From the IMG/VR virus record IMGVR_UViG_3300028591_000186: a stretch of DNA of 20,000 nt; one strand, written 5' to 3'. Positions 1,074-8,275 of the stretch are shown here, in pieces. How positions within the stretch are numbered: the stretch's first letter is position 1; every line of letters starts with the position of its first letter. The position numbers were made by a program, and so were the translations under genes. The DNA comes from an uncultured virus (IMG/VR IMGVR_UViG_3300028591_000186). Lineage: Duplodnaviria; Heunggongvirae; Uroviricota; Caudoviricetes. A model generated the notes under the pieces. The model saw nothing but the letters and a program-made list of their open reading frames with translations, was not told where the DNA came from and searched no databases.

Positions 1074-1511
1074 TTAATTATTATCAAGTTTAGCCATTAC
1101 TTGACGAATTGCTTCTCTTTCCTTTTCAGTAGATGCTTCCTGCATTGCCTGTTCTAAATGATCAAACATCATAGCTTTTCCGCTATAGCCACCATTATAA
1201 TTCATACCACGACCATTCATAGCATAGCTATTCCCATCACGATACATAATTCTACCATTATAACCATAGCTATTCATGCCACGATAACTATTACCATCAC
1301 GAGGCATTACGCCGTCATCATAATAACCATACATGGTTCTCATGGAATTGCCATTCATACCCATTTCTTTTTCCATAGATTCAGCCAAATCCTTACGAAC
1401 ATCAGCCAATTTATAGAGATTAGAAAGAGATGCATCATTAAGCTCAGGTTGCGTTGTAATCTTATCAATCTCACAATCAACAAGTTTTAAAGCTTTTTCA
1501 TAATCGAACAT
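1074..1511 (-). CDS. Phage accessory protein with Gly/Asn/Tyr/Met low-complexity repeats (RDGNSY x2)
   Basis: 145-aa ORF with RBS AAAGGAG. Helical N- and C-terminal segments flank a low-complexity core. Confidence 0.75.
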   Translation of the reverse strand: MFDYEKALKLVDCEIDKITTQPELNDASLSNLYKLADVRKDLAESMEKEMGMNGNSMRTMYGYYDDGVMPRDGNSYRGMNSYGYNGRIMYRDGNSYAMNGRGMNYNGGYSGKAMMFDHLEQAMQEASTEKEREAIRQVMAKLDNN

Positions 1512-1525
1512 TTTTATCTCCTTTC

Positions 1526-2002
1526 TTACCTTGTCATGAACAGATCAGGGCGGGAGAATATAATATTCGTATTCTGTACCTGAATAGGTTGATCTGATGT
1601 ATTCCGAACAGTAACTGTTTCACAACACCCACGCCAAATATCAACGTTGATTGAACGAGAAACATTGAAATATTGATCAACCGCAGCAGGAGTAACGATC
1701 ATATTACTTGCCGGGACAGTCGCACCATCTACTGAAATAGCGACTGAAATCGGCCCTACTGTGCCGCCTGTAGGTATAGATATGTTTGCTCCAAAATCTA
1801 CAAGATATTCCGCAGAATTGTTACCGCATCCACATCCACAATTACATCCACCGAAAAACGGAACATATCCACTCAGCAGAAAATTGCCAGTACCATCCCT
1901 ATGACGTACAAAACCTCGCCTACAAGGACTTGTAGACTCAGTAAACACGATTGATTCTCCGGGATTGACAATCTGAATGGCATTTGCACTATACTCAGCC
2001 AT
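1526..2002 (-). CDS. Beta-rich protein resembling the BclA C-terminal (C1q/TNF-like jelly-roll) domain, with a GCNCGCGCG insert
   Basis: 158-aa ORF with RBS GGAGGTG. Alternating beta-strand pattern (YLVDFGANIS, ISVAISVDG, TVTVRN). The fold is inferred. Confidence 0.6.
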   Translation of the reverse strand: MAEYSANAIQIVNPGESIVFTESTSPCRRGFVRHRDGTGNFLLSGYVPFFGGCNCGCGCGNNSAEYLVDFGANISIPTGGTVGPISVAISVDGATVPASNMIVTPAAVDQYFNVSRSINVDIWRGCCETVTVRNTSDQPIQVQNTNIIFSRPDLFMTR

Positions 2003-2016
2003 TATGCCACCTCCCT

Positions 2017-2748
2017 TCAGTTAGAACCACATCCGCAACCGTAACCATAACCCTGATTGCAGCAATACGGTGAAGGTACAACGTATGCCGGACGAGGAGT
2101 AGGAGCAAGATACTGCTCAAGAGCAGCTGTCTGAGCCTCATTATTTGCAAGAATAGCGGCTGTCTGTGCATTCTGTGATGCTGCAAGCTGTGACATTGTA
2201 AGCTGTTGCTGAAGAGCTGCAATTTGCTCATTTTTAGCATCAATCTTATCCTGACACATTTGATCTTTAATATTCTGAATGCCCGAATTAACAGTATTAA
2301 GAACACTTTGAAGAGCATCAGTAACCGCTGCACGATCTGCACATGCTTCAGTAGCAACCGTATACTTCAAATCTGCAACTGCTGCACGATTTTCACAACT
2401 ATTAGTTGCCTGATTCATAGCAAGATTACTTATCTGATTAGTCAGATTAGCAAGTTGGTTACAGCGAGATACTTCTGCATTTGCAAGAGAAGTGTTGATA
2501 CCGCTGATACCACTCATGATAGCCGCCTGATCAAAACCATTTTGCACATCGTTTACAACATAGGGAACAGATCCGCCATTACCACCGAATCCATTACCCC
2601 AACCGCCAAATCCACCATTCATAAAAGCGAAAATGAATAAGACGATTATCCAGAAAGACCCGCCGTCGTTCCATCCGAAACCATTACTACCATTACCTAC
2701 CACTGCTGCTACATCTGCCGCAGACAGATCACCATTTGAAAGTGCCAT
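2017..2748 (-). CDS. Membrane-anchored coiled-coil protein with Gly-rich N-terminus and Cys/Gly-rich tail
   Basis: 243-aa ORF with RBS AAAGGAG. Single hydrophobic segment FWIIVLFIFAFM between GFG/GWG repeats, Q/A-rich heptads, and a C-terminal YCCNQGYGYGCGCGSN. Confidence 0.75.
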   Translation of the reverse strand: MALSNGDLSAADVAAVVGNGSNGFGWNDGGSFWIIVLFIFAFMNGGFGGWGNGFGGNGGSVPYVVNDVQNGFDQAAIMSGISGINTSLANAEVSRCNQLANLTNQISNLAMNQATNSCENRAAVADLKYTVATEACADRAAVTDALQSVLNTVNSGIQNIKDQMCQDKIDAKNEQIAALQQQLTMSQLAASQNAQTAAILANNEAQTAALEQYLAPTPRPAYVVPSPYCCNQGYGYGCGCGSN

Positions 2749-2789
2749 TTGGAAACTCCTTTCGTTAAAAAAACATTAATAAGTTATTT

Positions 2790-2817
2790 ATTACTATCAT
2801 GCGCATGAATTAGTAAT
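2790..2817. promoter_or_regulatory. Palindrome or hairpin centred on TGCGCA in the leader of the 243-aa gene
   Basis: ATTACTA-TCATGCGCATGA-at-TAGTAAT: a perfect 12-bp inner palindrome plus 7-bp outer arms. Confidence 0.5.
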
Positions 2818-2824
2818 CGAAATT

Positions 2825-2852
2825 AAAAAAGCCGTGTATATAAATACACGAC
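2825..2852 (-). terminator. Intrinsic terminator-like hairpin inside the accessory module
   Basis: Minus strand GTCGTGTA-tttata-TACACGGC followed by TTTTTT. Confidence 0.6.
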
Positions 2853-2877
2853 GGAGTTCCTTTTAATCCTAAAAAAC

Positions 2878-3099
2878 CTATTTCAAAATTCCCTGTAATT
2901 GTCTCGCCATACCTTGAATTTGATTGAATTGCTGTTGTGTCATTTTTCCAGAATTCAATAAATCCTGTACTTGTTGTTTTGCATCACCCTTAAAATTTTG
3001 CTTAAATTGATTAAAGCTGTTTATGAAATTTGCCATATTCCCAAATGGGCCGTTATTTTGATTATTACCACCCATTTGATTAAATATTGGATTTCCCAT
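2878..3099 (-). CDS. Small Gln/Asn-rich phage accessory protein
   Basis: 73-aa ORF with RBS GGAGG. Its start overlaps the upstream stop (TAATG at 3101-3097). Contains the motif LLNSGKMTQQQFNQ. Confidence 0.75.
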   Translation of the reverse strand: MGNPIFNQMGGNNQNNGPFGNMANFINSFNQFKQNFKGDAKQQVQDLLNSGKMTQQQFNQIQGMARQLQGILK

Positions 3100-3608
3100 T
3101 ATTTGTTCCTCCGTCTTGATGTTGTACTAATATCAGATTCTTCTTTGTTTTCACTTGATAATTGTTTTCTAAGAGAATCTAATTCTTCAAGAACTAAATT
3201 AAAATCTTCCTGTTTTACAAATCCTTTTAGATCTTCTTTTTTTGCAAAATCAACATTTTCCACAACTTCTGGTACTATTTCTTCATCATCGGTTTCTTCA
3301 ATCAAACGGTAAGTACGCATCTTTTGTGGCTTTCCATCTTTATCTGCTGATTTCATATAGATGTATGGATTTTCACTATCCATAAGTAAAAGAGAGTGTC
3401 CCGGAGCAACAAGATAAGCTTTTGCAGCCTCTTTCCCTTCAACCCATATGAAACTATTATTTTCCTGACTTTGTTGTTCTTGCTGTTGAGGTTGCATCAT
3501 AGGTTGTTGCGGGACATACTGCATTTGTGGTTGCTGAACCATAGGTATATTCTGTTGAGCAGGCCATATAAATTGCTGTTGAGGCAAATATGGATTTTGA
3601 TAAATCAT
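3099..3608 (-). CDS. Phage accessory protein with a Pro/Gln-rich N-terminus, a small beta domain and a C-terminal coiled coil
   Basis: The ORF track gives 3099-3626. The better start is the ATG at 3608 (MIYQ), with RBS AAAGGA at 3623-3618, immediately after the upstream stop at 3610. Confidence 0.7.
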   Translation of the reverse strand: MIYQNPYLPQQQFIWPAQQNIPMVQQPQMQYVPQQPMMQPQQQEQQSQENNSFIWVEGKEAAKAYLVAPGHSLLLMDSENPYIYMKSADKDGKPQKMRTYRLIEETDDEEIVPEVVENVDFAKKEDLKGFVKQEDFNLVLEELDSLRKQLSSENKEESDISTTSRRRNK

Positions 3609-3609
3609 A

Positions 3610-3981
3610 TTAATATTTCCTTTCATATATCCAAATTATCTGTTCAGATCCCGAATCCCATGAATCGAAATAGACCCCGTTTTTTACTCCAACCACATGA
3701 TCTCCGGTTCCCAATAAAAAAATCCCGGATGGATACATATCAGTAAATTGCTTGACTGTATAACATCCGGGACATGAACTAAATCTTTCGAACCCATTTT
3801 CCCTTAATAATTTATCGTGAATATAATTGGTCGAAGGCATCATTTTTTCTTCAAAACCATATAACATAAGTTTTATATAAGCTTCATCCCAACTACAATT
3901 CAATACAACAGTTAAAGCCCTTGGAACACAATCTCCAGTAGATCGGTTCAAAGGATTGGGGTTATATTTTTTCCATGACAT
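3610..3981 (-). CDS. Putative papain-fold (C39-like) cysteine peptidase
   Basis: 123 aa with GDCVPRAL (Cys), DHVVGV (His) and YFDSWD (Asp) in papain-like order. Translationally coupled to the upstream gene. Confidence 0.6.
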   Translation of the reverse strand: MSWKKYNPNPLNRSTGDCVPRALTVVLNCSWDEAYIKLMLYGFEEKMMPSTNYIHDKLLRENGFERFSSCPGCYTVKQFTDMYPSGIFLLGTGDHVVGVKNGVYFDSWDSGSEQIIWIYERKY

Positions 3982-5996: not shown

Positions 5997-6479
5997 TTAT
6001 TTCGTTAGCGAATCATAATATTCAATGACGGCTAACCCTATATTAATTGCATCAGCCTCATCGTCCGTAACATCTAATCCAAGCCTATCTTTTATATATC
6101 TAACGCTTTCTTCCTTAAGTTCATTCCGAGTTTTCTTTCCTTGTTCAAATTTCGGCAACCATTTCCGCCACTCAGACGGATTTATCTCATGATATTCACG
6201 GCTCTTACATACACACCAACAACGAACTGCTCCAAGTATTTCGGAAAGCTTATTAACCATCATTACATTCCTACCATGTCCTTGTGGATGTTCAATCCAT
6301 ACTATATCTGGATTTTCTTTTTGAAGTAATTTAATAATATCTCTAATCATATTATCTATTCGTTCATTTACATCTTTATTTTTGCGATGGTCAAATAAAA
6401 TATGATAAACATATTTCCCATTAATAAAAAAAGAGACCCCTGTAGCGGTGGTACTTGAGTCTATACTGCATAATTTCAT
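5997..6479 (-). CDS. RuvC-like Holliday junction resolvase
   Basis: 160 aa with the RNase H-fold acidic motifs SIDSSTTATG, VWIEHP, INPSEWRK and DDEADAINIG. Confidence 0.85.
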   Translation of the reverse strand: MKLCSIDSSTTATGVSFFINGKYVYHILFDHRKNKDVNERIDNMIRDIIKLLQKENPDIVWIEHPQGHGRNVMMVNKLSEILGAVRCWCVCKSREYHEINPSEWRKWLPKFEQGKKTRNELKEESVRYIKDRLGLDVTDDEADAINIGLAVIEYYDSLTK

Positions 6480-6508: not shown

Positions 6509-6724
6509 TTAACTAATTTCTCGGTTTCTCCATTTTTTATATAATTCCTTAGTTTTTTCATTCTTAGGGAATATCATTATTACATCTCCTTGAGATTCAT
6601 AAACATCTAAAGGAAAAATACCTTCTCTTAACCAAATATATTGTTGGTATCTATCTCTACATCTCATTACTTCATGTGTTCTATACTCTTTTGTTTGAAA
6701 TGCTGGCTTTATCAAATTATTCAT
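6509..6724 (-). CDS. Small phage hypothetical protein whose start codon abuts the IS left end
   Basis: 71-aa ORF with RBS AAAGGA at 6738-6733, which lies inside the inferred IS left end. Confidence 0.7.
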   Translation of the reverse strand: MNNLIKPAFQTKEYRTHEVMRCRDRYQQYIWLREGIFPLDVYESQGDVIMIFPKNEKTKELYKKWRNREIS

Positions 6725-6861
6725 AAATAAAATCCTTTCGGTTTCGTAGGCGGAAACCCACCGCCCTTGGGCGGTGGGAGGAGTCTTGTAAATTCGTAGC
6801 CATTAACCTTGGCTTTTGATGTACTTTTATATAGTAGCTAATGATATCTTGAATTAACCGC

Positions 6862-6909
6862 TTGACTTTCACTAATAAATATTATAATATATATTTAGTG
6901 AAATAACAA
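6862..6909. promoter_or_regulatory. Overlapping divergent sigma-A promoters and an inverted repeat in the IS left part
   Basis: Plus strand: TTGACT (6862-6867), 17 nt, TAATAT (6885-6890), pointing at tnpB. Minus strand: TTGTTA (6909-6904), 17 nt, TATAAT (6886-6881), pointing out of the left end. Inverted repeat TTTCACTAA/TTAGTGAAA at 6867-6875/6895-6903. Confidence 0.55.
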
Positions 6910-6920
6910 TGAGGTACATT

Positions 6921-8060
6921 ATGGAACAGATGATAGTCACAGCTAAAATTCAGATATCCGTTAGTGCAGACAATAAGGTTCTACTTGATAAAACCATGTC
7001 TGTTTATTCTGATGCATGTAATTTTGTATCTGAATATGTGTTCCGTACTCATGACCTTAAACAGTTTTCTCTTAATAAGGTTTTGTACTCCACACTCCGA
7101 GAGAGATTTGGACTCAAATCACAGATGGCTCAGTCTGTATTTAAAACTGTTATCGCAAGATATAAGACCATTCTTGAAAATCAGAAAGAGTGGATTCAGC
7201 CATCTTTCAAGAAGCCACAGTATGACCTTGTATGGAACAGGGATTATTCCCTTACACAAAACTGTTTCTCGGTTAATACTCTGAATGGTCGTGTTAAACT
7301 TACTTATTTCGCTGAGGGTATGTCTAAATATTTTGACCACACAATCTATAAGTTCGGCACAGCTAAGCTCGTAAACAAGTATGGCAAATATTTTTTGCAT
7401 ATCCCTGTTTCTTATGATATCGAGGAAAGTAATATCTCTGATATCTGCAATGTTGTAGGCATTGACAGAGGTATTAACTTTGTTGCTGCCACTTATGATA
7501 GTAAGCACAAGTCTGGTTTTGTAAGCGGTAAAGCCATCAAGCAGAAACGTGCAAGCTACGCCAAACTTCGCAAGGAACTCCAAATGCGTCAGACTCCATC
7601 ATCAAGACGTAGGCTCAAAGCTATCGGTCAGCGAGAAAACCGTTGGATGCAGGATGTAAACCATCAAGTATCAAAGGCACTCGTTGAAAGCAATCCGAAG
7701 CATACGCTCTTTGTTCTTGAAGATTTGTCCGGTGTCCGTAATGCTACAGAGCGTGTCAGAACCAAAGACCGCTATGTTTCTGTATCGTGGTCTTTCTACG
7801 ACCTTGAACAGAAGCTAATTTACAAAGCAAAACAGAATCAATCAACTGTTATTAAGGTTGACCCTCGTTATACAAGTCAGTGCTGCCCTGTATGCGGACA
7901 CATTGAAAAAGCCAATCGTGATAAGAAGATACATCTGTTTACTTGTAAGAACTGTGGCTATAAATCAAACGATGACCGCGTTGGAGCTATGAATCTGTAC
8001 CGCATGGGAATCAACTATCTCGAAGATAGACAAGTACCTGATACAGTTACGGCAGAGTAA
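6921..8060 (+). CDS. tnpB: RNA-guided endonuclease TnpB
   Basis: RuvC-I VGIDRG, RuvC-II VLEDL, zinc finger CPVC..CKNC and RuvC-III NDDRVGAMN, so the D-E-D triad is intact. The likely start is ATG 6921 after GAGGT; the ORF track starts at 6909. Confidence 0.95.
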   Translation: MEQMIVTAKIQISVSADNKVLLDKTMSVYSDACNFVSEYVFRTHDLKQFSLNKVLYSTLRERFGLKSQMAQSVFKTVIARYKTILENQKEWIQPSFKKPQYDLVWNRDYSLTQNCFSVNTLNGRVKLTYFAEGMSKYFDHTIYKFGTAKLVNKYGKYFLHIPVSYDIEESNISDICNVVGIDRGINFVAATYDSKHKSGFVSGKAIKQKRASYAKLRKELQMRQTPSSRRRLKAIGQRENRWMQDVNHQVSKALVESNPKHTLFVLEDLSGVRNATERVRTKDRYVSVSWSFYDLEQKLIYKAKQNQSTVIKVDPRYTSQCCPVCGHIEKANRDKKIHLFTCKNCGYKSNDDRVGAMNLYRMGINYLEDRQVPDTVTAE

Positions 8061-8212
8061 ATCTTTGTCGTAAGGGGCGGTGTCAACCGTCCCATGATGC
8101 GACCCCACGGAAGTTACACCGACAAAATGTAGGAGTTATTGCAACGAACTACAGGGGAGTCGCAAGCCCATTACCTTTAGGTGATGGGTAGTTGACAATA
8201 CTTTTCACCTTT
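8061..8212 (+). ncRNA. TnpB omegaRNA (reRNA) scaffold plus guide; 5' boundary uncertain
   Basis: GC-rich stems GGGCGGT/ACCGTCCC and TGCGAC/GTCGCA, the right-end hairpin, and GTCAAC (8082-8087) complementary to the terminal GTTGAC (8191-8196). The guide would be the flank AATACTTTTCACCTTT. Confidence 0.7.
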
Positions 8213-8232
8213 TAATCCTTAATCAGATCCCT

Positions 8233-8275
8233 AAAAAAAGGGATACCCGTGTATTTCTACATGGATATCCCTTTT
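8233..8275. terminator. Bidirectional intrinsic terminator
   Basis: AAAAGGGATA...TATCCCTTTT arms with an inner stem, an A7 tract on the left and T4 on the right. Confidence 0.7.

Follow-up and report, generated by a model that had tools for sequence, protein, structure and literature searches.

An IS605-type element at a phage start codon belongs to a family whose left ends carry a predicted ribosome-binding site

The ends of IS200/IS605 elements recognise their sites by base pairing between a guide and the target, a rule with which the AAAG/TTAC combination of IS608 agrees. According to the accessible text on IS608 of Helicobacter pylori, this element inserts 3' of a short target without target duplication, and its 4-nt guide lies 5' of the hairpin foot (PMC3201880). 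The ISGst1-5 elements and PATEs are described, in the accessible part of bioRxiv 10.1101/2023.03.14.532601, as having left and right hairpins with DNA guides, a target 5' of the left end, TnpB with an omega-RNA, and mini-elements that lack ORFs. The element family described here is alike in all of these respects, and shares its TTCAT motif with the IscB element ISGst5. The same partial text differs in reporting an orientation bias for IscB elements that is absent for TnpB elements, and it makes no mention of start-codon sites or of an element-borne ribosome-binding site (RBS). IS605 stem-loops have been linked to the 3' ends of genes and not to their starts (PMC2775950, accessible text), and the part of PMC6006769 that was available covers the general guide mechanism only.

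We analysed a window of 20,000 nucleotides, which is part of a phage genome with genes for a portal, a virion structural protein, a RuvC-like resolvase and an integrase-like protein (PHROGs) on the minus strand. A plus-strand island among these genes is a tnpB-only, non-autonomous IS605-type element of 1,472 bp (Table 1), the family of which occurs chiefly in Lachnospiraceae-like bacteria of the gut and in phages of these, with many independent insertion sites that attest to past mobility. Each end has a subterminal hairpin with a 4-nt guide on the 5' side of the hairpin foot, and these structures are kept in relatives; the arms of the left basal stem covary. The tnpB gene, which begins MEQ in relatives, encodes a RuvC triad and a zinc finger, and is followed by a structured omega-RNA region that extends to the right end. 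By the pairing rule, the guides GAAA and CAAG predict TCAT and TGAC, as found. Full-length relatives carry a divergent ORF of ~134 aa, which we take from its sequence to be a Y1 TnpA; contigs of other copies diverge from the window at 6846 into tnpA, and only ~180 bp precede tnpB in the present element. Membership of IS607 was ruled out by the guide-hairpin ends and by the ORF beside tnpB in relatives, which is the short divergent one. Rfam scans of the element and of five loci with mini-elements found no intron family; this and the short stretch before tnpB argue against an IStron, in which a group I intron spans the element. The omega-RNA region (8061-8196) gave no credible Rfam match. A 51-aa ORF at 6717-6872 was rejected as a gene, as it overlaps the tnpA remnant and the left end.

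Table 1. Features at and around the insertion (positions in the window).
Feature	Position	Strand	Basis
RuvC-like resolvase gene, after the 71-aa gene	5997-6479		PHROGs
Conserved 71-aa phage gene, function unassigned; its ATG is the insertion target	6509..6724	-	Homologues
Target/TAM TTCAT (ATGAA on the gene strand)	6720..6724	+	214/214 clustered relatives with a callable TCAT, among the matches listed
tnpB-only IS605-type element	6725..8196	+	Empty-allele joint 6724 to 8197; ends of relatives
Putative outward Shine-Dalgarno (SD) sequence GAAAGGA, element-encoded, 8 nt from host ATG, -5.7 kcal/mol	6733..6739	-	Conservation, spacing; centroid fold
Left-end structure: basal stem 6748-6751/6783-6786, DNA guide GAAA 6753-6756, hairpin 6757-6778	6748..6786	+	Sequence; basal-stem covariation
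tnpA 3'-end remnant with in-frame stop; remaining tnpA deleted	6803..6846	-	Comparison with full-length TnpA ending SSATIQKYIESQG
Overlapping inward (tnpB) promoter, 9/12 consensus	6862..6890	+	Promoter scan; relatives
Outward sigma-70-type promoter TTGTTA-17-TATAAT, at tnpA-promoter position of full-length relatives	6881..6909	-	Promoter scan; offset
tnpB, probable start 6921; RuvC D186, E271, D356 and two CxxC motifs	6909..8060	+	Pfam PF07282, PF01385
omega-RNA scaffold region and right end: guide CAAG 8163-8166, hairpin 8167-8188, terminal TTGAC	8061..8196	+	Fold z=-5.15; common to relatives
Right flank, predicted TnpB guide; minus strand holds spacer and displaced native SD 8206-8211	8197..8216	+	Guide role after bioRxiv 2023.03.14.532601, accessible text
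Native terminator-like hairpin (8240-8271), then seven U on gene strand	8233..8275	-	Fold z=-5.3

An initial, sequence-only reading of this DNA had predicted both ends of the element and the allele that its removal should restore. Contigs from two runs of different studies (X4 and X5, neither being the possible source run) are free of the element and run from 6724 straight into 8197, skipping 1,472 bases; both boundaries and the predicted empty allele are therefore real, and the joint is exactly the one foreseen. A 2-base ambiguity at the joint was resolved by comparison with relatives: after TTCAT, almost every left end begins with AA, and the last bases of the right ends are TTGAC. The native RBS that was expected 9 nt from the ATG is present in these alleles as AAGGTG (-6.9 kcal/mol against the anti-SD probe). 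The clean joint also agrees with the proposal of insertion 3' of a short motif without target duplication, as does the occurrence of TTCAT at 214 of 214 callable sites among the matches listed. The motif had been given as the tetranucleotide TCAT, reverse complement of the start of the 71-aa ORF; its position and this relationship are correct, but the motif comprises five bases.

The insertion separates the ATG of the 71-aa gene from its native RBS. Judged by its homologues, this ATG is the true start of a conserved protein of 70-79 aa: 16 homologues of this length cover 93-100% of the 71-aa protein, and the start position was the same in the 7 of 7 that were read. A search for the locus of this gene found only 35%-identical loci, an exact search of viral contigs with the right flank gave 0 matches, and a search with the 98-aa upstream gene found no relatives. 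Elsewhere in the window, at 1074-3981, phage ORFs of low complexity, rich in Gln, Asn, Gly and Met, are clustered; the four that were scanned had no Pfam match.

A replacement RBS, 8 nt from the same ATG, had been proposed within the first bases of the element, and GAAAGGA is indeed found there (6739-6733) in element sequence, largely unpaired in the centroid fold. We ruled out that this RBS is phage sequence; the SD is conserved among the left ends of relatives. The further expectation that left ends always start with one 15-mer was too strict, as 58 of 204 do so among the matches listed, but their SD character is kept. Among the same matches, an outward SD of -3.5 kcal/mol or better was present in 167 of 204 evaluable left ends; this cut was chosen after the data had been seen, and under a stricter one the in-frame count of SD-bearing copies given below (76 of 166) becomes 72/157. 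The SD was found in 80 of 85 distinct long left-end haplotypes (among the matches listed), against a mean of 20% and a maximum of 32% in 200 shuffles, with its core 8-9 nt from the cut. Its spelling differs by lineage (GAAAGGA, GGAGGT, GAAGGAG or GAGGAGG), a pattern better explained by selection for pairing with the ribosome than by a fixed site for a protein. In IS608 the target lies 19 nt from the hairpin foot (PMC3201880, accessible text), whereas TTCAT lies at 32 nt here and the extra linker holds the SD. By comparison among relatives, the RBS in the left end is a real family-wide feature, the function of which we infer.

A promoter pointing out of the left end had also been recognised. 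It is present, and 25 of 31 related segments have it at an identical offset, where it faces divergent tnpA, but it is not a dedicated addition: it is the ordinary tnpA promoter of the family, left after deletion of tnpA, and no outward consensus promoter was found in 9 of 10 mini-elements. Loss of all but the last codons of tnpA has placed this promoter within ~150 bp of the host ATG. The promoter scan returned four promoter-like sites against 6.9 expected by chance, and the terminator scan called no terminator at the left-end hairpin on the outward strand. The divergent promoters overlap, and across them runs an inverted repeat, TTTCACTAA ... TTAGTGAAA (window 6865-6903), which is conserved in relatives and is a possible operator. 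In a close relative (94% TnpB identity; L001 and L026, ~1200-1450), an extra small reading frame lies between the shared promoter and tnpA.

The suggestion that insertion would be nearly silent in a late operon found no support. The terminator-like hairpin lies ~20 nt upstream of the native SD, and was not listed by the consensus terminator scan. Given this hairpin, the 71-aa gene may not be transcribed together with the structural genes, and an increase in its expression would be as plausible an effect of the element as no change. The hairpin is probably bidirectional, and on the plus strand could end the omega-RNA transcript ~40-75 nt past the right end.

Relatives were collected with a hairpin-only search pattern, containing neither SD nor flank, from viral, genome and metagenome collections and 401 family genomes. 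This yielded at least 221 unique left flanks, at least 214 after clustering, all ending TTCAT, and six further matches without TCAT in the search span (among the matches listed). These six, seven near-duplicate flanks, 10 whose length did not permit the 80-codon test and the window itself were dropped. ATGAA sites in the host flanks of the insertions served as background, and an identical rule was applied to insertions and background, the in-frame class being a frame of at least 80 codons that opens from the target ATG. Among the two-ended copies, some (L195/L202, L010/L342, L344/L347) have one flank in common but differ in the other, a mismatch that suggests recombination between copies or mis-assembly. 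One copy (L193:2558-3019) is inserted in frame within another tnpB gene.

Among the matches listed, a long in-frame ORF opened from the target ATG in 76 of 166 SD-bearing copies, compared to 233 of 1,070 background sites (p=3e-10), and out-of-frame and inward genic sites accounted for 30 of 166 copies against 521 of 1,070. Thus, the enrichment at ATG starts relative to all target sites that had been anticipated is seen with this flank-based background. NCBIfam profiles matched 35 of the 84 ORFs scanned behind the target ATG and left 49 without a match, among the matches listed. We read the 31 profile-informative ORFs of the SD group, again among the matches listed, as 26 true N-termini, 2 ambiguous and 3 internal; the first class includes ClpX, Psd, RdgB, DusB, TyrA, NrdG and KdpE, several of them housekeeping proteins near model length. 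By our estimate, roughly 64 of 166 SD-bearing copies among the matches listed lie at real starts, compared to 47-74 of 1,070 background sites. We then reserved the term strict start for sites at which a long ORF was accompanied by an upstream stop and by displacement of the native SD. In the two-ended set, which omits L195 (mismatched flank) and two short copies (L197 and L177), 11 of 36 SD copies among the matches listed were strict starts, against 55 of 1,049 background sites (p=3e-6). A separate phage set, found via an internal motif of the mini-elements, gave strict starts in 6 of 9 copies and a displaced native SD in 8 of 9, against 36 of 454 background sites. As measured by these sequence comparisons, real start codons are strongly over-represented among the insertions that survive.

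We favour, with a probability of about two in three, a reading in which insertion occurs at any TTCAT and those copies are then retained whose gene stays translatable, the element RBS replacing the displaced one. Comparison shows that the left-end DNA guide selects TTCAT and so places the element immediately upstream of ATGAA on the opposite strand; as their conservation shows, the first ~15 left-end bases combine an SD with 8-9 nt of A/T spacer. At target sites that open a reading frame with Met-Lys or Met-Asn, the element SD would take the place of the displaced RBS, with transcription presumably supplied by the tnpA promoter of the element in the window copy, or by host read-through in mini-elements. 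The insertion step probably takes no account of gene starts; copies within genes would afterwards be purged, and those at starts would survive at least as well as intergenic ones. This would explain why, by our estimate, ~4 in 10 surviving SD-bearing copies, among the matches listed, lie at real starts, against ~5-7 in 100 available sites. From the known mechanism, an intact TnpB with a flank-derived guide would also cut the empty allele, which is present in related phages. Mini-elements were at starts more often than tnpB-bearing copies (8/13 versus 3/23, p=0.006; two-ended copies among the matches listed), as expected if selection accumulates. A more elaborate proposal, of a start-codon specialist in which target motif, left-end RBS and perhaps site choice co-evolved and insertion swaps the host translation start for that of the element, strikes us as doubtful.

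Active targeting, by a transpososome that prefers TTCAT at translation starts and for which the built-in SD would complete the strategy, is in our judgement unlikely. The purine tract after the left-end hairpin might, for example, find an additional pairing partner in the pyrimidine-rich anti-SD of the target strand; alternatively, starts might be preferred through single-strand exposure. Such targeting would account for the one-ended data, in which starts exceed estimated intergenic sites ~2.2-fold (p=0.002, on estimated counts, among the matches listed), which is more than plain neutrality gives. In two-ended copies among the matches listed, the start-to-intergenic ratio was not significantly above background (11:12 against 55:111, p=0.17). 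Targeting would also account for the enrichment of copies that keep the tnpA end beside the left end (35/91 in-frame, p=0.0006, among the matches listed), and for phage mini-elements, nearly all of which are at starts, two of them without an outer SD. Extended pairing can increase the specificity of engineered IS608 variants, according to the accessible text of PMC5934647. However, tnpB-bearing two-ended copies were at starts in only 3 of 23 cases (not significant, p=0.12) and at genic sites in 11 of 23, among the matches listed. Further, an SD-less lineage with the same purine tract and near-identical TnpA shows no start excess: its in-frame sites numbered 5 of 34 versus 76 of 166 (p=0.0009, among the matches listed), two of the five being clear starts in our reading, and host is confounded in this comparison, as ~27 of the 34 sites come from one genome (G005) of a different phylum. 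The purine tract lies, moreover, in an internal loop above the covarying basal stem. On these comparisons, retention fits the data better than targeting. The earlier idea of an element adapted to land at starts thus stands as far as enrichment among survivors is concerned, but is not supported as to the element being built to land there; insertion at TTCAT anywhere followed by retention fits the data.

We consider it distinctly unlikely that the SD-like tract serves the structure of the left end or its contact with a protein and merely resembles an RBS, with start copies surviving because their coding sequence is intact and precise excision or weak leaky translation suffices. The SD bases can alternatively pair with AGGA after the hairpin on the top strand; in top-strand folds, bases 9-12 do so with a mean pairing weight of 0.49 over 120 left ends (among the matches listed). 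In addition, several elements without an outer SD lie at starts, among them three phage copies (L041, L348 and L349); such elements also weigh against retention alone. Against this, good SD spellings vary at a fixed spacing of 8-9 nt while their partner is nearly constant, the partner being constrained by the search pattern, and the 27 SD-less copies in G005 show left ends that transpose without the tract. Precise excision would restore internal sites equally well (PMC3201880, accessible text), yet internal sites are depleted. That the enrichment is an artefact of ascertainment or background choice is very improbable: although the background comes from insertion flanks, the gene rules are home-made and the counts are those among the matches listed, the search pattern contained no SD or flank, one rule served insertions and background, and profile matches and the separately found phage set agree.

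GstTnpA is able to use an alternative boundary further out (bioRxiv 10.1101/2023.03.14.532601, accessible text), and a long left end could therefore arise by capture of a host RBS region between two TTCAT motifs. A quick, unfinished TnpB tree nested two SD-less copies among SD-bearing ones without starred support, and so cannot order gain and loss of the SD.

Mini-elements of 406-449 bp were found at 22 loci. Between left end and omega-RNA they have a promoter-like site that points inward, and a noncoding segment, conserved over ~155 nt (e.g. L203:2569-2723), with invariant loops and a 6-bp stem that shows two-sided changes in 5-7 of 13 sequences. This segment had no Rfam match and is possibly an undescribed structured RNA. 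A strong inner SD occurred in 14 of 22 haplotypes without an outer SD and in 0 of 114 with one (among the matches listed; these are related sequences and not independent), and at nine loci it adjoins the inner base of the left-end stem-loop. Short left ends may thus carry a split RBS, in which hairpin folding brings the inner SD near the ATG; the inner SD could be such a hairpin-bridged RBS or an RNA pairing partner. A functional split RBS is made less likely by the commonest inner-SD lineage, which shows no enrichment at starts. Five short left-end relics ending GCAAG, without an outer SD, were observed at apparent gene starts, assigned by profile for L095 and L317 and by our reading for L109, L156 and L337; at L156, a small upstream frame continues in frame into the host ATG.

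Among described systems, the ISC and IS605B families are alike in having ATGA targets preceded by any base, with insertion immediately upstream of ATGA; they differ in being from Cyanobacteria and Proteobacteria, and the accessible text draws no link to start codons or an RBS (PMC4810608). Our literature searches, which covered the main texts of mostly open-access papers, turned up no description of left ends that carry an RBS or of enrichment at start codons. Thus, ATGA-type targets and the TTCAT motif are known already, and it is for the RBS-bearing left end and the enrichment at starts that we found no description. If our reading is correct, it offers a testable reason for the recurrence of ATGA-type targets in the IS200/IS605 superfamily: a share of the target sites, the start codons, would be turned from harmful to tolerated. 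A gene with a copy on its start codon probably stays translatable, and elements of this kind would quietly rewire how phage and housekeeping genes of gut Firmicutes are translated and sometimes how they are transcribed. IStrons, in the accessible texts, are likewise IS605/IS607 elements with a built-in lowering of insertion cost (bioRxiv 10.1101/2023.11.20.567912, PMC4227781). They splice out of mRNA (bioRxiv 10.1101/2023.11.20.567912), whereas the present family would rescue translation only at start codons, by RBS replacement. This would add another route by which IS200/IS605 insertions become cheap, beside splicing out, as in IStrons, and landing between genes.
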